DNA of 64,000 nucleotides from Escherichia coli. GTDB taxonomy: Bacteria; Pseudomonadota; Gammaproteobacteria; Enterobacterales; Enterobacteriaceae. Below, one piece after another: positions 12,126-56,940 of this stretch. Where the stretch lies: NCBI RefSeq assembly GCF_045037415.1, contig NZ_CP173438.1; one strand, 5' to 3'. The notes beneath the pieces were generated by a model. The model did no database searches, was not told where the DNA came from, and was given only the letters and a program-made list of their open reading frames with translations. Within the stretch, counting starts at the first letter, position 1. Each line of letters opens with the position of its first letter. The position numbers and the translations under genes are program-made.

Positions 12126-14084
12126 ATGAGTCAAATTCACAAACACACCATTCCTGCCAACATCGCAGACCGTTGCCTGATAAACCCTCAGCAGTACGAG
12201 GCGATGTATCAACAATCTATTGACGCACCAGATACCTTCTGGGGCGAACAGGGAAAAATTCTCGACTGGATCACACCGTACCAGAAGGTGAAAAACACCT
12301 CCTTTGCCCCCGGTAATGTGTCCATTAAATGGTACGAGGACGGCACGCTGAATCTGGCGGCAAACTGCCTTGACCGCCATCTGCAAGAAAACGGCGATCG
12401 TACCGCCATCATCTGGGAAGGCGACGACGCCAGCCAGAGCAAACATATTAGCTATAAAGAGCTGCACCGCGACGTCTGCCGCTTCGCCAATACCCTGCTC
12501 GAACTGGGCATTAAAAAAGGTGACGTAGTTGCGATTTATATGCCGATGGTACCGGAAGCCGCGGTCGCGATGCTGGCCTGCGCCCGCATTGGCGCGGTAC
12601 ATTCGGTGATTTTCGGCGGCTTCTCGCCGGAAGCCGTTGCCGGACGCATTATCGACTCCAGTTCACGACTGGTGATCACTTCCGACGAAGGTGTGCGTGC
12701 CGGGCGTAGTATTCCGCTGAAGAAAAACGTTGATGACGCGCTGAAAAACCCGAACGTCACCAGCGTAGAGCATGTGGTGGTACTGAAGCGTACTGGCGGA
12801 AAAATTGACTGGCAGGAAGGGCGCGACCTGTGGTGGCACGACCTGGTTGAGCAAGCCAGCGATCAGCACCAGGCGGAAGAGATGAACGCCGAAGATCCGC
12901 TGTTTATTCTCTATACCTCCGGTTCTACCGGTAAGCCAAAAGGCGTGCTGCACACTACCGGCGGTTATCTGGTGTACGCGGCGCTGACCTTTAAATATGT
13001 CTTTGATTATCATCCGGGCGACATCTACTGGTGCACCGCCGATGTGGGCTGGGTTACCGGACACAGTTATTTGCTGTATGGCCCGCTGGCCTGCGGCGCG
13101 ACCACGCTGATGTTTGAAGGCGTACCGAACTGGCCGACGCCTGCCCGTATGGCGCAGGTGGTGGACAAGCATCAGGTCAATATTCTCTATACCGCGCCCA
13201 CGGCGATTCGCGCGCTGATGGCGGAAGGCGATAAAGCGATCGAAGGCACCGACCGTTCGTCGCTGCGCATTCTCGGTTCCGTGGGCGAGCCAATTAACCC
13301 GGAAGCGTGGGAGTGGTACTGGAAGAAGATCGGCAACGAGAAATGCCCGGTGGTCGACACCTGGTGGCAGACCGAAACTGGCGGTTTCATGATCACACCA
13401 CTGCCTGGCGCTACCGAGCTGAAAGCCGGTTCGGCAACACGTCCGTTCTTCGGCGTGCAACCGGCGCTGGTCGATAACGAAGGTAACCCGCTGAAGGGGG
13501 CCACCGAAGGCAGTCTGGTGATCACCGACTCCTGGCCGGGTCAGGCGCGTACGCTGTTTGGCGATCACGAACGTTTTGAGCAGACCTACTTCTCCACCTT
13601 CAAAAATATGTATTTCAGCGGCGACGGCGCGCGTCGTGATGAAGATGGCTATTACTGGATCACCGGGCGCGTGGACGACGTGCTGAACGTCTCCGGTCAC
13701 CGCCTGGGGACGGCAGAGATTGAGTCGGCGCTGGTGGCGCATCCGAAAATTGCCGAAGCCGCTGTGGTCGGTATTCCGCACAATATTAAAGGTCAGGCGA
13801 TCTACGCCTACGTCACGCTTAATCACGGGGAGGAACCGTCACCAGAACTGTACGCAGAAGTCCGCAACTGGGTGCGTAAAGAGATTGGCCCGCTGGCGAC
13901 GCCAGACGTGCTGCACTGGACCGACTCCCTGCCTAAAACCCGCTCCGGCAAAATTATGCGCCGTATTCTGCGCAAAATTGCGGCGGGCGATACCAGCAAC
14001 CTGGGCGATACCTCGACGCTTGCCGATCCTGGCGTAGTCGAGAAGCTGCTTGAAGAGAAGCAGGCCATCGCGATGCCATCGTAA
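12126..14084 (+). CDS. acs: Acetyl-CoA synthetase
   Basis: 652 aa with the AMP-binding motif [11 protein letters not shown]. Sequence recognised as E. coli Acs. Confidence 0.95.
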
Positions 14085-14089
14085 CCCAC

Positions 14090-14216
14090 AATTGTCGGAT
14101 GCGCTCCGACCTACATCTGGCAACGGCTGTAGGTCGGATAAGATGCGCCAGCATCGCATCCGACAACAAGCGCCGGATGCGGCGTGAATGCCTTATCCGG
14201 CCTACATTCGGCAAGG
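14090..14216. repeat. REP/BIME elements between acs and yjcH
   Basis: gtcggatgcgctccgacctac ... gtaggtcggataagatgcgccagcatcgcatccgac ... gccggatgcggcgtgaatgccttatccggcctac: three REP palindromes. Confidence 0.85.
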
Positions 14217-38933: not shown

Positions 38934-40352
38934 TTATCCGTGTAATGCTTTATTATTCAAGGCCATTGCTGCTTCGTGGATGACTTCGCTTAATGTCGGA
39001 TGCGCATGGATCGCACAGGCAATATCCTCGCCAGAGGCGCTAAAAGTCATCGCCAGCGCAATTTCATTAATCAGCTCCGATGCCTGCGGGCCAACAATCG
39101 CTCCGCCAAGTACGCGGTCAGTGTGTTTATCACTGTATAACGTGCAACGCCCACCTTCCTGGCCTAATGCTAAGGCGCGACCGTTACCGGCAAACAGAGA
39201 ATTTCCTTTGTTAAAGACTCTGCCAGCGGCTTTCAGTGAGGCCTCGTTTTCCCCTACCCACGCAACTTCCGGTTGGGTGTAAATCACCGAAGGGATCAGC
39301 GCAAAATTAATCGGCTCTACCACCAGTCCGGCAATTTGATCAGCCACCACTACACCTTCAGCCATCGCTTTATGCGCCAGCATCGGCCCTCGCACGACAT
39401 CACCAATTGCCCACAGCCCGGCTTTCCCGGTACGGCATAAGTTATCGACGGCAATACCGCCACGGTTATCGGCTTCAAGACCGAGTTGCACGAGATCGAC
39501 ACCAGAAAGTCGCGGTACACGTCCAATGGCAAGAATTAATTTATCGAAGCGGCTTTCTTCTCGCTTCTCACCCTGCCGCCAGCGCACATGCACACCGTCA
39601 TCCCGTTGTTCAATAGCCTCAATCTCTACTGCCAGTTGCATTTTCATCCCACTGGCAATCATTGCTTTACGGACTTCGTTCGACAGGCGAGCTTCCAGTG
39701 CAGGCAAGAACGTTGGCGCCATCTCCAGCAACGTGACGTCTGAACCAACCCGATTCCACACAGACCCCAGTTCAAGGCCAATCACGCCAGCGCCGATCAC
39801 ACCGAGACGCGGCGGCACTTCGCTCAATGCCAGGGCGCCACGATTGTCGAGGATCTGTTGATTATCAATGGTAACGCCAGGCAGCTGACGCGGCTGAGAA
39901 CCTGTTGCAATCACTACATTACGGGCGTGAAGGTGTTGATCGTTTACACGTAATTGCCAAATCTCATCCTGAGCACATTCTAACGTTGCGAGGCCGCACA
40001 GGTGCTTCACTTTATTTTTCTTAAACAGCAAGCTGATGCCCATTGTCAGGCGGCTTACTATGGCGTCTTTACGTTGAATCATCGCAGCTGCATTGAAAGA
40101 TACGCCGTCAACATTAACGCCATGAATGCTCGCCTCATGCTGCACTTGCGCGTACAGTTCGGAAGATTGCAGCAACGATTTTGACGGAATACAGCCGACA
40201 TTGAGACACGTACCGCCCGGCGAAGGTTCGCCCTGTGCATTAACACCATCATCAATACATACTACGGAAAGCCCATTCTGCGCAGCCCGCAGTGCCGCTA
40301 CGTAACCACCTGGCCCCCCCCCCATAACTGCCACATCAAAAATTGTACTCAT
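38934..40352 (-). CDS. Dihydrolipoyl dehydrogenase (E3) paralogue
   Basis: 472 aa. FAD fold GGGPGGY, redox disulfide GGTCLNVGCIPSK, C-terminal HAHPTLSE. Confidence 0.9.
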   Translation of the reverse strand: MSTIFDVAVMGGGPGGYVAALRAAQNGLSVVCIDDGVNAQGEPSPGGTCLNVGCIPSKSLLQSSELYAQVQHEASIHGVNVDGVSFNAAAMIQRKDAIVSRLTMGISLLFKKNKVKHLCGLATLECAQDEIWQLRVNDQHLHARNVVIATGSQPRQLPGVTIDNQQILDNRGALALSEVPPRLGVIGAGVIGLELGSVWNRVGSDVTLLEMAPTFLPALEARLSNEVRKAMIASGMKMQLAVEIEAIEQRDDGVHVRWRQGEKREESRFDKLILAIGRVPRLSGVDLVQLGLEADNRGGIAVDNLCRTGKAGLWAIGDVVRGPMLAHKAMAEGVVVADQIAGLVVEPINFALIPSVIYTQPEVAWVGENEASLKAAGRVFNKGNSLFAGNGRALALGQEGGRCTLYSDKHTDRVLGGAIVGPQASELINEIALAMTFSASGEDIACAIHAHPTLSEVIHEAAMALNNKALHG

Positions 40353-45751: not shown

Positions 45752-46756
45752 TCAGTCGGGAAGTTGGCGAAGAATTTGCTCCACTCGCTCTTGCAGTGGC
45801 CCCGAAACCGAAAGATAAGGAATGTTCCTGCGCGACAATTCCTGTTCATACCACACCTGTTGCCGTGCGCGAAATACCTCTCCTTGCCGGGTGCCATCCT
45901 GCACGAAGGGAAATTCTGCGCCGCAAAGCACTACCAGAGAGTATTCCCGCTCCGCCAGTTGGTGAAGTTCTTGCGGAGCATGACCATATTGATCAAGGGC
46001 ATAGAATAAGGTCGTGAGTGGCGACGTGTCACATATAAGATAGTGATTAGCTTCTGCTTGTTGTTCCCGGCGTACCTGTTCGCAGGCGATATGCAACAAA
46101 TCATCCGCAGTTAAGATACCGTTTTTTTCTTCCCAATAGTCGCGGCCAAATTCAGCGACATACACCGTATCAAGCACGCCCGCCAGCGCTTTTGAAAGCG
46201 TGCTTTTACCGGTAGATTCGCCACCAAGCAGACAGATACGGCGAACGAAACTGTAATAAACATCATTCGCCAACATGTAGCGATAGCGGTGAACATCGGA
46301 ACGAATAAGCGTTCCCGAAGGCGCTTCATCGCCAACTGGGCGCGCCATTCGAACGTGTTCAACGGGTTGGGCAAAACGCCGCGCCAGCACGTTAGCAAAG
46401 CCATCGCCATAGTCTTCTGCAGTAAATACAGCGTGTGGGCGGCAACGTAATATCTGCAAGCATAGCGTCGCCACATAATGACGGTGGATGTCGGCATCAG
46501 CATTGTTATGCGGGATAGCAGGTAAGTTATAACGCGCAACAAGCTCTGGCGTCAGTACCAAAAACGTCGCTTGCGGGAAGCGCACTTGCAGCCACGTCAG
46601 GCGCTTTTCAGGTTCACAGTCAGGCATTTCCGGCACGGAATAACTGATGATGAACAGTTCTTCACATTGCGCCAGTGCGGTATTGATCAACTTTTCATGA
46701 CCACAATGCAAAGGCGCGAATTTACCAACCACCAGACCCGTTGCAAAAGGCTTCAT
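45752..46756 (-). CDS. NadR-like bifunctional NMN adenylyltransferase / ribosylnicotinamide kinase lacking the N-terminal HTH domain
   Basis: 334 aa from ATG 46756 (ATGA overlap with the upstream gene). Nucleotidyltransferase motif GKFAPLHCGHEKLI. P-loop LLGGESTGKSTL in the C-terminal half. Confidence 0.7.
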   Translation of the reverse strand: MKPFATGLVVGKFAPLHCGHEKLINTALAQCEELFIISYSVPEMPDCEPEKRLTWLQVRFPQATFLVLTPELVARYNLPAIPHNNADADIHRHYVATLCLQILRCRPHAVFTAEDYGDGFANVLARRFAQPVEHVRMARPVGDEAPSGTLIRSDVHRYRYMLANDVYYSFVRRICLLGGESTGKSTLSKALAGVLDTVYVAEFGRDYWEEKNGILTADDLLHIACEQVRREQQAEANHYLICDTSPLTTLFYALDQYGHAPQELHQLAEREYSLVVLCGAEFPFVQDGTRQGEVFRARQQVWYEQELSRRNIPYLSVSGPLQERVEQILRQLPD

Positions 46757-47310
46757 GATGTTTGCAACTCTTTGCGCCATTGATACAAACCATACCAGGC
46801 GTTAATCCAGAACAGGAAATATAAGCCAGCGGTCAGGTTTAAACCGCGCGTCATATACAGTGGCACCGCCAGGGTATTCACCGCTAACCAGACGTACCAG
46901 TTTTCGATACGTCTTCCCATCAACATGAATTGTGCCAGAACGCTGAAGGTCAAAATCAACGAATCCAGCCAGGGTGCCCAAGCATTGGTAAAGGTGTGGA
47001 GTAAAAAGCCGTAACCGCCTGCCACGACGACAGCACAGAGCAACAAAAGGAAAAAGTGACTGGCTTGCGTTCGGCGCACCGGCAAGATGTCGCCACCCTG
47101 ACCTTTCAGCCAGTGGATCCAGCCAGTGATGCTGGTCACGATGAAGAATAACTGGAGCGTAACGTCGGCATAGAGTTGCACGGACCAAAAAACCCAGCCG
47201 TACAATATGCTGCCAATTATGCCGATCCACCATGTATGCACATTGTTTCTGGCAGCCAGCCAGACGGAAACCGCGTATGCCAGACACGCGGCGATTTCTG
47301 AATAAGACAT
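46753..47310 (-). CDS. PnuC-family (nicotinamide riboside-type) transporter, short form
   Basis: 185-aa Trp-rich polytopic ORF (..NNVHTWWIGIIGSILYGWVFW..; ..WYVWLAVN..) with SD gggaggga. It starts 22 nt after the alr stop. Confidence 0.65.
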   Translation of the reverse strand: MSYSEIAACLAYAVSVWLAARNNVHTWWIGIIGSILYGWVFWSVQLYADVTLQLFFIVTSITGWIHWLKGQGGDILPVRRTQASHFFLLLLCAVVVAGGYGFLLHTFTNAWAPWLDSLILTFSVLAQFMLMGRRIENWYVWLAVNTLAVPLYMTRGLNLTAGLYFLFWINAWYGLYQWRKELQTS

Positions 47311-51242: not shown

Positions 51243-52814
51243 ATGTGCTCTGTACGCACGATCACTGCACCGGAAGCTGCAGATTTGATTGTTGATGGCG
51301 CAGTTGTCACCGTCTCCTCCTCCAGTGGAATGGGGTGTCCGGATGCGGTGCTGGCAGCAATAGGTGAACGCTTTCAACGTGCCGGACATCCGCAAAACAT
51401 CACCTCCATCCACCCTATCGCCGCTGGTGATATGTATGGCGTAAAAGGCATCGATCATCTGGCGCAACCGGGCTTACTGGCAAAAGTGATCGCTGGCTCC
51501 TACCCCTCCGGTCCATCATCAATGACGCCTCCGTTAATCTGGCAAATGATCAATGACAACGCGATCCCCGCCTGGAATCTGCCTTCCGGGATCTTATTTG
51601 ATATGCACCGGGAAGCGGCGGCTCATCGTCCTGGCGTGCTGACACAAACAGGCATGGATACCTATGTGGATCCCCTGTTGCAGGGCGGTGCAATGAATGA
51701 AAAAGCGGCGCAACAATCTCTGGTTGAACGTGTTCGATTTGCTAACGACGACTGGCTGTTTTTCCCCAGTATCGTGCCGCAGGTGGCGATCATTCGCGCT
51801 ACCACTGCCGATGAACGCGGCAACCTGACTTATGAACATGAAGGGGCTTATCTGGGGCCACTGGAACAGGCTACTGCCGTTCGCAATAATGGTGGCATCA
51901 TAATTGCGCAAGTAAAACGACAGGTTGCCGCCGGAAGTCTGAAACCAAAAGAGGTGCGTATTCCGGGTGTACTGGTGGATTACATCGTGATTGCGCCGGA
52001 ACAAACACAAACGACACAAACGCAATATGAACCTGCCATTTCCGGCGAAATCAGTCGTCCGCTGTCAGCCTTTCGTTATATGGAACATGGCCCGGCGCGA
52101 GTTATTGCCCAGCGAGTCGCGCAAGAACTACAAAGTGGAGATGCGGTAAATATTGGCTTTGGTATTTCTGCCAACGTACCACGCATTTTACTGGAACAAG
52201 GTCGCCACGGTGACGTCACCTGGCTGCTGGAACAGGGCGCGATTGGCGGAGTTCCACTGCTGGAATTTCAGTTCGGTTGTGCCTCTAATGCAGAAGCATT
52301 TTTGCCCTCTCCCCAGCAGTTCACCTATTTCCAGGGTGGTGGTTTTGATCTCACTCTGATGTCGTTTTTACAAATCGGCGCAGATGGCTCAGTGAACGTC
52401 TCACATCTCCCCGCTCGTCCACATGTCACTGCCGGATGCGGTGGATTTATTGATATCACCTCACATGCGAAACGCATTATTTTCTCTGGCTTTTTCAATG
52501 CCGGTGCCCAACTGCAACTGGAAGAGGGTCAGCTGCGTATCATTAAAGAAGGCAAAGCCAAAAAACTGGTACAGGACGTCGCCCACGTGACGTTCTCCGG
52601 CAAACGCGCAATAAGACTCGGGCAACAAGTACAGTACATTACTGAACGCTGCGTTCTGGAATTAACCCCAGACGGGCTACTGGTCACAGAAATTGCCCCA
52701 GGTATTGATCCTGAACGCGACATTCTCGCCCAAAGCGATGCCCCACTCCGTCTGGCAGACGATCTCAAACTAATGAATCCCCTCTATTTTCAACAAGGAA
52801 GTCACCATGAATAA
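51243..52814 (+). CDS. Family-I acyl-CoA:carboxylate CoA-transferase, fused alpha/beta (YdiF / propionate CoA-transferase-like)
   Basis: 523 aa, collinear with E. coli YdiF as I recall it (..NLPSGILFDMHREAAAHRPGVLTQTGMDTYVDP.., ..IIRATTADERGNLTYEHE.., ..GCGGFIDIT.., ..YITERCVLELTPDGL..). Confidence 0.8.
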   Translation: MCSVRTITAPEAADLIVDGAVVTVSSSSGMGCPDAVLAAIGERFQRAGHPQNITSIHPIAAGDMYGVKGIDHLAQPGLLAKVIAGSYPSGPSSMTPPLIWQMINDNAIPAWNLPSGILFDMHREAAAHRPGVLTQTGMDTYVDPLLQGGAMNEKAAQQSLVERVRFANDDWLFFPSIVPQVAIIRATTADERGNLTYEHEGAYLGPLEQATAVRNNGGIIIAQVKRQVAAGSLKPKEVRIPGVLVDYIVIAPEQTQTTQTQYEPAISGEISRPLSAFRYMEHGPARVIAQRVAQELQSGDAVNIGFGISANVPRILLEQGRHGDVTWLLEQGAIGGVPLLEFQFGCASNAEAFLPSPQQFTYFQGGGFDLTLMSFLQIGADGSVNVSHLPARPHVTAGCGGFIDITSHAKRIIFSGFFNAGAQLQLEEGQLRIIKEGKAKKLVQDVAHVTFSGKRAIRLGQQVQYITERCVLELTPDGLLVTEIAPGIDPERDILAQSDAPLRLADDLKLMNPLYFQQGSHHE

Positions 52815-53586
52815 CGGCACCATTGACCTCCAGCGCAACGGTTTCATTGCCACTTTGGTGATTAATCGCCCGGCGAAACTCAACGCATTAACCCCAGAGA
52901 TGCTCGAACAACTGCTGGCGCATTGCCACACGTTGGAAACTGATTCGGAGATCCGCGTAGTACTGCTGACCAGTGCCAGTGAAAAAGCGTTTTGTGTCGG
53001 CGCGGATATTCATCGCTGGACCTCTCTTTCTGCACTCGATATGTGGCGCAACTGGATCCGCCGCGGTCATCAGGCATTTGATGCTCTGGCACAACTGCCA
53101 CAGCCCGTAATCGCCCTGTTGCACGGCCTGGCTTATGGCGGTGGTCTGGAACTGGCTGCTACCGCCGATATCCGTATTTGTAGCGCCGAAGCACAAATGG
53201 CACTACCAGAAACCGGGCTGGCGACAGTGCCTGGCTGGTCAGGAACGCAGCGGCTGACGGCACTGCTTGGGCGCTCACTGGTGAAAGAACTGGTATTTAC
53301 CGGTGAACCACTGGATGCACAGCGGGCACTGTCCTGCGGGCTGGTGAATCGCGTTGTCGCCAGGGAGGCGTTACACGACGCCGGACTGCAACTGGCACAA
53401 CGTATCGCCCAGCGTGCTCCCGTTGCAGTGCAGATCGCCAAGCAGGTTATTGATGCCGGAGAAGGTATTGCTGTGGCCTCGACGCTTGAAGCACTGGCTG
53501 GCGCTTTTTCCGCCACGACTGAAGATGCTCATGAAGGCAGTCAGGCATTTACTGAGAAGCGTCAACCGCACTTTCAGGCACGCTGA
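52807..53586 (+). CDS. Enoyl-CoA hydratase/isomerase (crotonase fold)
   Basis: 259 aa with oxyanion-hole segments FCVGADI and LHGLAYGGGLELA. 8-nt overlap with the CoA-transferase gene. Confidence 0.85.
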   Translation: MNNGTIDLQRNGFIATLVINRPAKLNALTPEMLEQLLAHCHTLETDSEIRVVLLTSASEKAFCVGADIHRWTSLSALDMWRNWIRRGHQAFDALAQLPQPVIALLHGLAYGGGLELAATADIRICSAEAQMALPETGLATVPGWSGTQRLTALLGRSLVKELVFTGEPLDAQRALSCGLVNRVVAREALHDAGLQLAQRIAQRAPVAVQIAKQVIDAGEGIAVASTLEALAGAFSATTEDAHEGSQAFTEKRQPHFQAR

Positions 53587-53612
53587 TCGCCTCTTACAAG
53601 GAAAGAAAGATA

Positions 53613-54893
53613 ATGAATATGACAACCTCTGTTCCCCAAACGCCTTCTTTATTTCGGCGAATAATGACAAAACTCGCGGCCTTTGCACCTGGCATCTTTC
53701 TTATTGGCTACAGCATCGGAACAGGCAGCATCACCACTATGGCTAAAGCAGGTGCTAACTATGGTGTCTCGCTCATGTGGGCCGTGGCGCTTTCTTGCAT
53801 TGTTACCTGGTTTTTAATCCGTATTTATGGTCGTTATGCTTCCGTCACTGGTGAACGCGCGTTGACTGCATTTCGTCGCCATATCCATCCCGGCGTTGCG
53901 ATGTTGTTTCTGATCGGGTTAACCGTTGCCGTGAGCGGTTCCATTATGGGGGTAATGGGTATTCTGGCGGATGTAATGGCAACATGGTCCACGACCTGGT
54001 TTAGTGGCGGTATCTCAGCTCTCGCCTGGGCTATCGCGATGGTCATTATGATTAACGTGATGCTCTGGACCAACAGCAACGCCGGGTTCGACAAAATCCT
54101 CTCCGCGCTGGTTGGCATTATGGGGCTGGCGTTTGTGATTAATTTTTTCATTATGATGCCGCCGGTCGCAGATCTGCTGGCCGGATTTATTCCGTCTGTT
54201 CCCGATCCTGTCGCTGGCGATAACAGTACGCCATTTCTGATAATTTCTGGCATGGTGGGTACCACCGTAGCACCAGCAATGTTTCTTATGCGCACGACCC
54301 TGGTAAAAAGTAATGGTTGGGGTGTGGACAATTTGCCTCATCAAAATCGTGATGCCATTGTCAGTGCAGGAATGATGTTCATCATCAGTGCGGCGGTGAT
54401 GGCTGCGGCTGCGGGTACGTTGTACCAAACTGGCACAGGTTTAAATAATGCCTCGCAAATGGTCATTATTCTCGAACCTATTGCTGGCTCAGCTGCCGTG
54501 GGGCTCTTTGTTATTGGTATTGTTGCAGCCGGGCTTTCCAGCCAGTTCCCAAATTTGCTGTTAACGCCCTGGCTGCTGGCTGACTGGCGTGATACCAGCA
54601 ACGAAGTTAGCCCAGGTTACCGTATCCTGATGACGGTTATGTCTCTGCTTTGTCTGGTTGTGCCGCTGTTCCACGCACGCCCGGTATTGGTGATGATTGC
54701 CAGCCAGGCCTTTAACGCCATTATTCTGCCGCTGACTGTTTTATGTATGTTCTGGCTGGCGAACAAGCCTTCGTTAATGGGCAAATATCGTTGCTCACGC
54801 TGGGAAAACGTCATGTTTATTGCCATAAGCGTATTTACGCTAATCATGGGCTATATGGCAATGAGCGGCTTAATCGAAAGTCTGATGAAATAG
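53613..54893 (+). CDS. NRAMP-fold (MntH-related) permease lacking the metal-coordinating residues
   Basis: 426 aa. Aligns by eye to E. coli MntH TM1 and TM6, but DPGN is replaced by GTGS and MPH by APA (see findings). Confidence 0.7.
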   Translation: MNMTTSVPQTPSLFRRIMTKLAAFAPGIFLIGYSIGTGSITTMAKAGANYGVSLMWAVALSCIVTWFLIRIYGRYASVTGERALTAFRRHIHPGVAMLFLIGLTVAVSGSIMGVMGILADVMATWSTTWFSGGISALAWAIAMVIMINVMLWTNSNAGFDKILSALVGIMGLAFVINFFIMMPPVADLLAGFIPSVPDPVAGDNSTPFLIISGMVGTTVAPAMFLMRTTLVKSNGWGVDNLPHQNRDAIVSAGMMFIISAAVMAAAAGTLYQTGTGLNNASQMVIILEPIAGSAAVGLFVIGIVAAGLSSQFPNLLLTPWLLADWRDTSNEVSPGYRILMTVMSLLCLVVPLFHARPVLVMIASQAFNAIILPLTVLCMFWLANKPSLMGKYRCSRWENVMFIAISVFTLIMGYMAMSGLIESLMK

Positions 54894-54903
54894 GTGGGAC
54901 GCA

Positions 54904-56940
54904 ATGATTGACGAAACGCTAACGGCGCTCACTGATATCAAAATGCCCCATTACGCACCGCTGGCTCAAGCCAGCGGTAGTATCGACCTTAACGGTACCA
55001 TTTTACCAGAGTACTGCTGCAACACGCTGGTTCTGGGCAGTGGCGCGGCAGGATGGCGAGCTGCCGTCGAGCTGAAACGGCAAAATGTCGATGTAATGGT
55101 CGCCTCCAGCAAAGCCTTCTGGGGCACTTCCGCCTGTTCTGGTTCCGATAAACAAACGCTTCACACCGCGAATACGCGTGCAAATGGTGACCATTTTCTG
55201 ACATTAAGTAACACCCTGGCGGCAGGTGGTGCGATGGATCATGACACCGCATATGTTGAGGCGGTCGGATCGGTGAACACCTGTGAAGTACTGAAATATC
55301 TGGGTCTGGATCTGCCTGAAGATCTCTTTGGCGCAACGTTGCGTTATCAAACCGATCACGATGAATTTGGCCGTGCCACTAGCTGCGGTCCTCGAACATC
55401 GCGCCTGATGGTGAAGGTGCTGGCCCAGGAGGCAATGCGCCTTAATATTCCTCTTTGCGATCACACAACGGCGATTCATATCCTGACCAGTGGTGAAGGG
55501 GAAAATCGACGAGTCGTGGGGGTGATCGCCATCGATAAAGCCTGTCGGGATAATCCCTGGCGAATGGTCGTGATTCGCTGCCAGCATCTGGTTTTAGCCA
55601 CGGGCGGACCAGGTGAACTTTATCGTGACAGTGTTTATCCGGTGAACTGTTTTAGTGCGTTGGGCATGGCACTGGAAGCAGGTATAACTCTGGTTAATCT
55701 TACGGAAAGTCAGTTTGGTATCGGTACACCGCGCAGCCAGTTTCCGTGGAATCTTTCCGGTACTTACATGCAGGCGATGCCGCGCATCTATTCGCAGGAC
55801 CACTCCGGGCGTCAGTATAATTTTCTGGCAGCTTATTACCCCACGACTCGTATGCTGGCCTCCGCAATATTTCGTAAAGGTTACCAGTGGCCGTTTCACG
55901 CGGAACGAATGCTGGAATATGGCTCCAGCCTGCTGGATGTCGCAGTTTATGAAGAGACTCAAAAAGGGCGCGATGTTTTTCTTGATTTTCTACGGGAACC
56001 AGAACCCGCAGCGGACGGAACGTCATTCAACCTGCAAGAACTGGATGATGATGTCATCGACTATCTGCAACAAAATCACGCCCTGTTGGCACAACCGCTG
56101 GCGAGATTAACACAGATGAATCCTCTGGCTATTCGTTTGTATCAGATGCACGGTCATGATCTCACAGCCTCACCGCTCAAGTTTACGCTAAATAATCAAC
56201 ATCTTAATGGCGGAATTGAAGTTGATATTTGGGGACGTACATCGCTAACTGGTTGTTATGCTGCCGGAGAAAATGCCGGAACACATGGTGTCACGCGCCC
56301 AGGTGGAGCAGCGCTCAATGCCGGGCAAGTTTTCGCCCGCCGCTGTGCATTACATATTGCTCATCAGAAAAGCCAGGACCGGCCTCTCGAGAGGCAACAA
56401 ATTCTCAGTACGATTAATGAGGCGCAACAGTACCTGAATCAGGGGCTGCTACGTGACGACGTGCGAGAAACGATACAAAATACCATGAGCCACCATGCCG
56501 CAATTTTGTGTCATACACAGGGGATCAACACTGCCGCGCAAACCCTGGCAACACTTTGTGAAGATATTCGCCGGGAAGGTATTCAATGCGATGAAAACAG
56601 CCTGGCACAATCTTTCCAGTGGCGGCAAAGTGCGCAACTGGCGCTGGCTGTACTGCGTTCTTTACAATGTTATGTCGAAAACGGTGGTGGGAGTCGTGGT
56701 GCCAGGGCTATCTATGATGGCGAAGCCGGTATTGCACCGCAAACACCAGGTGGGCCACTCCTGGCCTGGCGTTTTCGGCCAGAAAATCAGGATGCCAGGC
56801 AATATATGATTTGTGTTTGTCGGGAAGCTAATGATTACCAAACCTGGACTCGCCCGTGCCGTGAACGGGGCGTATTAACGCTAACCAACTTTGAGCGCCA
56901 GTGGCAAAACTGGATTGCGGCGACGCCGTTTCAATACTGA
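54904..56940 (+). CDS. Stand-alone FAD-dependent oxidoreductase of the fumarate reductase/succinate dehydrogenase/L-aspartate oxidase flavoprotein family
   Basis: 678 aa. Dinucleotide fold LVLGSGAAGWRAA, FAD-closing motif AAGENAGTHGVTRPGGAALNAGQVF, helical C-terminal domain. No signal peptide and no adjacent Fe-S subunit. Confidence 0.75.
   Translation: MIDETLTALTDIKMPHYAPLAQASGSIDLNGTILPEYCCNTLVLGSGAAGWRAAVELKRQNVDVMVASSKAFWGTSACSGSDKQTLHTANTRANGDHFLTLSNTLAAGGAMDHDTAYVEAVGSVNTCEVLKYLGLDLPEDLFGATLRYQTDHDEFGRATSCGPRTSRLMVKVLAQEAMRLNIPLCDHTTAIHILTSGEGENRRVVGVIAIDKACRDNPWRMVVIRCQHLVLATGGPGELYRDSVYPVNCFSALGMALEAGITLVNLTESQFGIGTPRSQFPWNLSGTYMQAMPRIYSQDHSGRQYNFLAAYYPTTRMLASAIFRKGYQWPFHAERMLEYGSSLLDVAVYEETQKGRDVFLDFLREPEPAADGTSFNLQELDDDVIDYLQQNHALLAQPLARLTQMNPLAIRLYQMHGHDLTASPLKFTLNNQHLNGGIEVDIWGRTSLTGCYAAGENAGTHGVTRPGGAALNAGQVFARRCALHIAHQKSQDRPLERQQILSTINEAQQYLNQGLLRDDVRETIQNTMSHHAAILCHTQGINTAAQTLATLCEDIRREGIQCDENSLAQSFQWRQSAQLALAVLRSLQCYVENGGGSRGARAIYDGEAGIAPQTPGGPLLAWRFRPENQDARQYMICVCREANDYQTWTRPCRERGVLTLTNFERQWQNWIAATPFQY

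Follow-up and report, generated by a model that had tools for sequence, protein, structure and literature searches.

The stretch of Escherichia coli chromosomal DNA analyzed here, 64,000 nucleotides of contig NZ_CP173438.1 (assembly GCF_045037415.1) and hereafter called the window, carries between dnaB and qorA a five-gene island that encodes a LacI regulator, a CoA-transferase, a hydratase, a permease and a flavoprotein, and whose only transporter gene is that of the permease. This permease, a relative of the Nramp metal transporters, is the subject of the present report. With a probability that we put at about 0.68, it is a secondary-active, ion-coupled importer of the organic carboxylate handled by the operon, and not a metal transporter. 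An earlier note, made from the sequence alone, had described the open reading frame (ORF), which is present as described, and had placed it inside an acyl-CoA catabolic operon. That setting is borne out by the CoA-transferase and hydratase genes upstream, the latter separated from the permease gene by 26 bp, and by the flavoprotein gene that follows after 10 bp. The genes of the island are:

53613..54893, + strand: Nramp-related permease, 426 aa, 11 predicted transmembrane (TM) helices
49953..50987, - strand: LacI-family regulator, divergently transcribed, presumed repressor of the operon (domain search, annotation)
51243..52814, + strand: fused family-I CoA-transferase, YdiF-like, first gene of the operon (PDB 2ahu, E=3e-100)
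52807..53586, + strand: crotonase-family enoyl-CoA hydratase/dehydratase, 259 aa (8-bp overlap with the CoA-transferase gene)
54904..56940, + strand: FAD_binding_2 flavoprotein, 678 aa, distant relative of NadB/SdhA/FrdA (domain search)

The permease matches Pfam family PF01566, the Nramp superfamily (TC 2.A.55 in the broad sense), end to end, its residues 40-395 covering model positions 1-356 of 357 (192.3 bits for a gathering cutoff of 29.8 bits, E=1.7e-56). RefSeq lists it as an 'Nramp family divalent metal transporter' (WP_023141302.1), a name it owes to narrowly clearing the broad NCBIfam model NF037982 'Nramp_1' (60.8 bits, cutoff 50); it lies far under the cutoff of the curated MntH model NF001923 (83.7 bits vs 430) and under that of TIGR01197 (nramp; 33.6 bits vs 272.5). 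The annotated start is M18 (53664), and the upstream ATG at 53613 is preceded by a purine-rich stretch. A 91.5%-identical orthologue from the same operon of another enterobacterium (locus L090) keeps the first 17 residues but not M18, which makes the longer ORF plausible and 53613 the more likely start. The gene, whose G+C content of 0.50 is in line with that of its neighbors, shows a dN/dS of ~0.03 against this orthologue and is full-length in 545 of the 546 E. coli genomes that carry it: it is under strong purifying selection and is not decaying. The lone interrupted copy, in E. coli BRG214 (NZ_CM188609.1), has an IS5-family transposase at the equivalent of ~53613-54137. Two further database records of the locus call for comment. 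A 361-aa gene call on an ENA contig joins enoyl-CoA hydratase domains to the C-terminal 257 residues of the permease (100% identity) and is probably a frameshift or assembly artefact of that contig; and CP054241.1, an 834-kb E. coli record that is a plasmid according to PLSDB, also holds the locus and is probably a mislabelled chromosome fragment.

The register of the metal-site motifs was established by independent HMMER alignments to BfraNramp (10ky), a clade-B Nramp of Bacteroides fragilis, EleNRMT (7qia) and ScaDMT (7phq/5m94). All three place G36, T37, G38 and S39 opposite the canonical D, P, G and N of TM1 and, in the same register, T217, A220, P221 and A222 of TM6 opposite Ala, Met, Pro and His; R227 falls opposite the second TM6b His. 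The motifs lie as follows:

53718..53729, + strand: TM1 helix-break motif GTGS (G36-S39), replacing D-P-G-N (alignments, direct translation)
54258..54278, + strand: TM6 motif GTTVAPA (G216-A222), replacing G-A-x-x-M-P-H (alignments, direct translation)
54291-54293, + strand: codon of R227, which replaces the second TM6b His and is invariant in the family

The by-eye alignment of the earlier note had the same register; one of the two peptides it quoted, the second, is exact, while the first was one residue off (FAPGIFLIGY, not GPGIFLIGY). Its central claim, that this protein has G, S, A and A in place of the D, N, M and H that form the canonical metal and proton site, agrees with both the alignments and the translation, and formal alignment reveals no shifted Asp, Asn or Met. 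The four substitutes are all small and uncharged. As for the TM3/TM9 proton-pathway network, only D120 aligns, at the position of the conserved TM3 Glu, and the TM9 Arg pair has no reliable mapping. An AlphaFold2 model for which 24 homologues were aligned (pLDDT 83.7, pTM 0.82) contains 11 long helices whose only intramembrane breaks, at residues 35-36 and 219-220, coincide with the motif positions. In a Foldseek search, DraNramp, EleNRMT and BfraNramp rank first (TM-scores 0.76-0.85), and NKCC, AdiC and CAT carriers come behind the Nramp/NRMT structures. The fold is that of the Nramp/LeuT proteins, in which TM1 and TM6 are discontinuous. Loss of the metal motifs in Nramp relatives is already known and does not by itself exclude metal transport; the novelty lies in the functional context.

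This context is provided in the first place by a replacement of the transporter within the operon. A search of 5,426 complete E. coli genomes with the 7-kb operon region, which in the window is 100% identical to that of E. coli strain SK1144, found the region in 826. The Nramp-like gene is present in 546 of these, in copies that are all at least 99% identical; several of the strains are labelled O25b:H4-ST131, and other lineages are represented as well. The same slot is occupied in 280 genomes, among them Nissle 1917, CFT073, UPEC 26-1 and an APEC O2:K1:H5 strain, by a gene of the major facilitator superfamily (MFS). As the two counts add up to exactly 826, the genes are strict alternatives, two unrelated folds in one operon slot, of which the MFS one is a known kind of carrier for organic acids. 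Comparison with Nissle delimits the exchanged segment:

53575..54927, no strand assigned: swapped cassette: end of the hydratase gene (last codons), spacer, transporter gene, start of the flavoprotein gene (first 8 codons)

The breakpoints lie at 53574/53575, twelve bases before the stop codon of the hydratase gene, and at 54927/54928, eight codons inside the flavoprotein gene, with flanks that are 99.4% identical over 3,622 bp on the left and 98.1% over 3,173 bp on the right. In Nissle, CFT073 and the 278 further genomes, the counterpart is a 1,528-bp segment encoding a 466-aa MFS transporter of the metabolite/H+ symporter (MHS) family. Mismatches to Nissle are close to nil up to the left junction, whereas on the right they amount to 2-4% for ~1.35 kb and then almost vanish, an asymmetry that fits homologous recombination with a donor that would have carried the same operon and contributed the cassette along with part of the flavoprotein gene. 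The displaced MFS protein matches TIGR00883, the metabolite/H+ symporter model, with E=1.8e-104; among named proteins, ShiA, ProP and TcuC are its best relatives, and NCBI names one copy 'MHS family MFS transporter'. Both arrangements recur in other enterobacteria. Locus L091 has the order alr-dnaB-LacI-CoAT-ECH-MFS-FAD-qor at the same chromosomal site (DnaB 98%, CoA-transferase 87% identical), and L086 also has the operon with an MFS gene; L090 has it with the 91.5%-identical Nramp-like gene. A megablast search with the MFS gene of L091 gave no E. coli match, owing to nucleotide divergence, and it was the Nissle allele that found the 280.

The second source of context is the wider family. More than 2,000 homologues of the permease were found. 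Outside enterobacterial copies that range from ~90% to near identity, the nearest relative is a Psychromonas-like protein that is 64% identical, and the bulk, at 46-55%, comes from marine polysaccharide degraders such as Zobellia, Formosa, Winogradskyella, Paraglaciecola and Colwellia; further marine sources include Pontiella, Pirellulaceae, Saprospiraceae and Hyphomonadaceae. GTGS, the TM6 motif MVGTT and R227 are invariant in all 116 close family members, K45 and K232 each occur in 114 of them (K45 within a nearly invariant TM1b MAKAGAxYG), and GTGS, K45, R227 and K232 are again invariant across 24 diverse members, as are S309, S310, Q311, P313 and N314 of the TM8 motif SSQFPN. In neither the 116- nor the 24-sequence set does a conserved acidic residue replace the TM1 Asp, and the invariant charged residues of these two helix halves, TM1b and TM6b, are positive. 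Among 1.8 billion representative proteins, 1,689 matched at E<1e-3, and at least 558 relatives occur across species-representative genomes. In a motif table of 55 representatives, group A, which holds the permease, combines IGTGS in TM1, GVMGI..D in TM3 and MVGTT...R in TM6 at 33-48% identity to the permease; group B, at 25-30%, has IGPGT, AAYEAGN.SG and GTTVVPYNLFLH. The permease carries the full signature of the GTGS clade: IGTGS(V/I)T...MAKAGA in TM1, MVGTT...R in TM6 and AAG(L/I)SSQFPN in TM8. The names of the cluster members behind distant representatives are all automatic "Mn2+/Fe2+ NRAMP" labels and uninformative.

We then clustered the neighbors of homologues at 78 loci from marine bacteria. 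The mannonate dehydratase UxuA is encoded within 5 kb in 33 of the 78 and directly adjoins the homologue, in the same orientation, in 23; the adjoining gene is that of a PMI-like cupin in 18 and of an AGE-family epimerase in 5. Taken together, one of these three or a ManD-like dehydratase is the immediate co-directional neighbor at 42 loci, and a sugar-acid or alginate gene (UxuB, KdgK, SDR, or PL6/PL7/PL17-like lyases) lies within 5 kb at 61. A Formosa homologue comes after SusC/SusD, and the 64%-identical relative adjoins uxuA, uxuB, uxaC and a GntR/FCD regulator. The last arrangement leads us to reject the APA variant as the marker of a clade linked to CoA-transferase genes, a possibility that the earlier note had raised, because these 64%-identical relatives have APA and yet adjoin uxu/uxa genes. 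An alginolytic cluster of Alteromonas has been reported to include an 'Nramp' gene (PMC6431674). Literature searches linking Nramp to mannonate, alginate, uxuA or glucuronate, or concerned with non-metal or orphan functions of PF01566, returned no functional study, and neither did searches on the E. coli operon by gene names and guessed CFT073 tags including c5021-c5026.

Two lines of evidence thus argue for import of an organic acid: an MHS-type carrier fills the same slot in 280 E. coli genomes, and the GTGS clade sits in sugar-acid and alginate clusters, not in metal-homeostasis contexts. In addition, Rfam models detected neither an M-box nor a Mn riboswitch, whether in the E. coli island or in the six homologue loci searched, and no MgtE N-domain gene was found adjoining the permease, whose neighbors form a catabolic operon. 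The suggestion in the earlier note that the protein might import an organic substrate is supported by all of these observations, drawn from gene content and sequence comparison. The evidence is all comparative, and the reading is not proven. The most likely substrate class, by analogy, would be a hydroxylated carboxylate, sugar-acid-like or cyclitol-like, since the nearest relatives outside enterobacteria adjoin uxuA, uxuB and uxaC, the displaced MFS protein comes nearest to ShiA-type carriers and the regulator belongs to the LacI type. That the whole GTGS clade consists of organic-anion or sugar-acid importers, one of which reached ST131 by a precise cassette swap displacing an MFS carrier, we hold to be only somewhat better than an even bet.

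A possible mechanism can be outlined. Backbone amides at the glycine-rich TM1 break (IGTGS) and the TM6 break (GTT) would bind the carboxylate of the substrate, an arrangement that may be likened to the G-S/T-G motif of APC amino-acid transporters. Binding of the anion could be helped by the cationic residues K45 in TM1b and R227 and K232 in TM6b, while the SSQxPN cluster of TM8 might contact hydroxyl groups or the coupling ion; H+ or Na+ would drive transport through the usual rocking-bundle cycle. Once inside the cell, the acid would be converted to a CoA thioester by the YdiF-like transferase and pass to the crotonase and on to the flavoprotein. Degradation or reduction of shikimate or quinate by the operon is kept only as a lead; its grounds are the ShiA-like MFS protein, the proximity of ydiF to ydiB/aroD in K-12, where they adjoin, and the fact that shikimate is a 2-enoate.

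Several observations weigh against organic-acid import. A common slot does not prove a common substrate. The flavoprotein lacks the dicarboxylate-binding motif of its characterized relatives, so that the pathway cannot be reconstructed: SdhA, FrdA and NadB carry a substrate-binding QFHPT, in whose place residues 270-275 (55711-55728) read QFGIGT, invariant across the ~690-aa family of the protein, and the profile alignment to the three enzymes spans the FAD-binding parts only, the capping domain being unaligned to any solved relative. It is therefore neither a fumarate nor an aspartate enzyme, and its substrate could not be inferred by profile comparison; it is a member of an uncharacterized flavoenzyme family, which in Enterobacter and Pseudovibrio adjoins MFS or ABC sugar-type transporters. 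Furthermore, the commonest neighbor in the marine clade is UxuA. This enzyme is Mn/Fe-dependent and cupins are usually metalloproteins, so that adjacency in marine genomes could reflect a supply of cofactor. Finally, YcsG of Bacillus subtilis is encoded within the 5-oxoprolinase operon pxpABC. Initially annotated as an importer of 5-oxoproline, it has been renamed MntG, since its overexpression raised cellular Mn and an mntH mntA ycsG triple mutant was unobtainable (PMC10448178); with this precedent, a motif-less Nramp relative in a catabolic operon can be read as a metal importer.

The last two points would be accommodated if the permease were still an importer of divalent cations (Mn2+, Fe2+, Mg2+) that uses an unconventional site and supplies cofactor to neighboring enzymes, as would its standing as a full-length Nramp-family member that clears 'Nramp_1' and the resemblance of its TM6 GTTVAP to GTTIAP of the Mg2+/Mn2+ carrier EleNRMT. 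We nevertheless consider this unlikely. The TM1 Asp, kept even in NRMTs, is a Gly here, with no conserved acidic substitute and with invariant charges that are cationic; the scores against the MntH and TIGR01197 models are far under their cutoffs; the three enzymes of the E. coli operon include no member of a typically Mn-dependent family; metal riboswitches were absent from the loci searched; and YcsG itself, 16% identical in structural alignment, belongs to another group (PMC12873925). Moreover, metal import would leave the ST131 operon without an importer for its substrate and the Nissle/CFT073 operon without a supplier of metal, and yet the two genes are strict alternatives. A metal-organic acid chelate, such as a Mn- or Fe-sugar-acid complex, would combine the Nramp ancestry of the permease with its sugar-acid context, and metal-citrate carriers exist in other transporter families. 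Such a cargo seems very unlikely to us, given that there are no conserved acidic residues to act as ligands and no metal-regulatory signal, and that MHS transporters, which take the same slot, are not known for chelates.

Other readings concern the role of the gene in the operon. The carnitine operon caiTABCDE follows a logic of transporter, CoA-transferase, crotonase and reductase, which the composition of the present operon parallels, and a flavoprotein of the fumarate-reductase superfamily could serve as a terminal reductase whose reduced product is excreted; like CaiT, the permease might then be a precursor/product antiporter or a product exporter. This is quite unlikely in our judgment, as the alternative occupant of the slot belongs to a metabolite/H+ symporter family and the sugar-acid pathways in which the marine relatives occur (UxuA, KdgK) are assimilatory, with no product needing export. 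It is hardly credible, lastly, that the gene is a recombination passenger, unused by the operon or disabling it in ST131. The cassette did come by recombination, apparently with part of the flavoprotein gene; the permease gene is nevertheless intact in all but one of its 546 genomes, with a dN/dS that indicates constraint, the tight 26-bp and 10-bp spacings are preserved, and the other operon genes are all annotated as intact.

If the GTGS clade does carry organic acids, it would represent the first non-metal substrate class for PF01566 and a clue to the evolution of metal selectivity within the LeuT fold. Motif-less Nramp relatives have so far been called "orphan" or "entirely uncharacterized" (PMC10606218, PMC12873925). 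In ST131, the swap may in that case have changed how tightly, or at what energetic cost, an acid derived from host or diet is taken up, and the pair formed by ST131 (Nramp-like) and Nissle/CFT073 (MFS) offers a natural, near-isogenic comparison in genetically tractable strains. A pangenome study noted a puzzling second mntH allele that is core, or fixed, in ST131 (PMC9836092); it is very probably the permease gene, in which case both this reading and the naming as a metal transporter throughout RefSeq would apply to the same protein, the former being probably wrong. In marine bacteria, the homologues may perform an inner-membrane step that has been overlooked, the uptake of uronate- or mannonate-type products from alginate and further algal glycans.

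Three other features of the window were recorded, the annotation outside the operon region being that of the SK1144 record. The segment 30903-44295 is the KguS/KguR alpha-ketoglutarate utilization island, equivalent to CFT073 c5032-c5041 (PMC3694859), with genes for a sensor kinase, a sigma-54 regulator, an Ldh-family oxidoreductase, a DASS symporter, sucDC, lpdA and odhB. It also holds a second 2-oxoglutarate dehydrogenase E1, and its lpdA (38935-40352) is annotated as frameshifted. At 12789-14137, an IS3-family element, IS1397, lies between acs and yjcH-actP and splits the usual acs-yjcH-actP operon. At 45752-47310, between tyrB and alr, an AAA-family ATPase gene overlaps pnuC (nicotinamide riboside transporter), a pair that we take to be absent from this site in K-12.

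Among known systems, canonical Nramp/MntH proteins such as DraNramp and BfraNramp (10ky) share with the permease the Pfam family, an 11-TM LeuT-type fold with broken TM1 and TM6, the GxxYG of TM1b and an acidic residue, here D120, at the conserved TM3 Glu position. The permease differs from them by GTGS for DPGN, APA for MPH and Arg for the TM6b His, by an identity of 18-23% in Foldseek structural alignments, by its failure to reach the MntH and TIGR01197 cutoffs, and by being encoded within a catabolic operon under a LacI-type regulator. EleNRMT (7qia) and the NrmT of C. acetobutylicum are likewise motif-divergent Nramp relatives without the canonical Met and His, and the TM6 stretch of EleNRMT is almost identical to that of the permease; they nonetheless keep the TM1 Asp, where the permease has G36, and it is the Asn that Gly replaces in NRMTs. 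NRMT genes are frequently, but not universally, associated with M-box riboswitches and MgtE-like fragments (PMC4072509).

Another motif-less and functionally uncharacterized set of Nramp relatives is the 'orphan outgroup' of Cellier, which has a Gly at the Asp position and a Thr at the TM6 Ala position (PMC9606685, PMC10606218). It is described by Y, N and four invariant Gly in helix 3 and by V..Y in helix 6 (PMC10606218), features that the motifs of our group B match, so that group B fits this outgroup. The permease itself does not have the outgroup motifs: these are IGPGT in TM1, AAYEAGNxSG in TM3 and TTVVPYNLFLH in TM6, as opposed to IGTGS, GVMGIxxD and TT(V)xxx...R in its own clade, and identity between the groups is 25-30%. 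Judged by such motifs, the GTGS clade is distinct from the orphan outgroup, from NRMTs and from canonical Nramps. It is probably one of the 'G-motif' groups named in a preprint of January 2026, which finds Nramp-related proteins without DPGN and MPH to be paraphyletic and which calls all of their groups 'entirely uncharacterized' except those that are NRMT-like or contain MntG (PMC12873925). In published phylogenies the motif-less groups are not only paraphyletic but basal to canonical Nramps (PMC12873925), and a non-metal function could therefore be ancestral instead of derived. Hence, of the proposal in the earlier note that the protein is a repurposed Nramp relative, the non-metal role has gained support but the direction of change may be wrong.

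YcsG/MntG resembles the permease in lacking the canonical motifs and in being encoded inside a catabolic operon; it belongs to a different group ('G-motif 3', PMC12873925), and the 16% identity was obtained by Foldseek against model 9a52. The arrangement of YcsG with PxpABC has a parallel on plasmid pHV4 of Haloferax volcanii, where a group-B (GPGT) gene overlaps by 1 bp the first of two adjoining hydantoinase/oxoprolinase genes (A, B), although the two enzyme systems are non-homologous; by analogy, these associations hint at an organic cyclic-amide substrate. The pHV4 locus (L092 4992-9828) has similar genes on 28 haloarchaeal megaplasmids. A last point of comparison is the protein in whose slot the permease lies. 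The MHS-family transporter WP_001183175.1 of Nissle and CFT073 has an unrelated, 12-TM MFS fold and no sequence similarity to the permease, but it occupies the identical slot of an operon that is otherwise 98-99% identical, and its substrate and role are presumably those of the permease.

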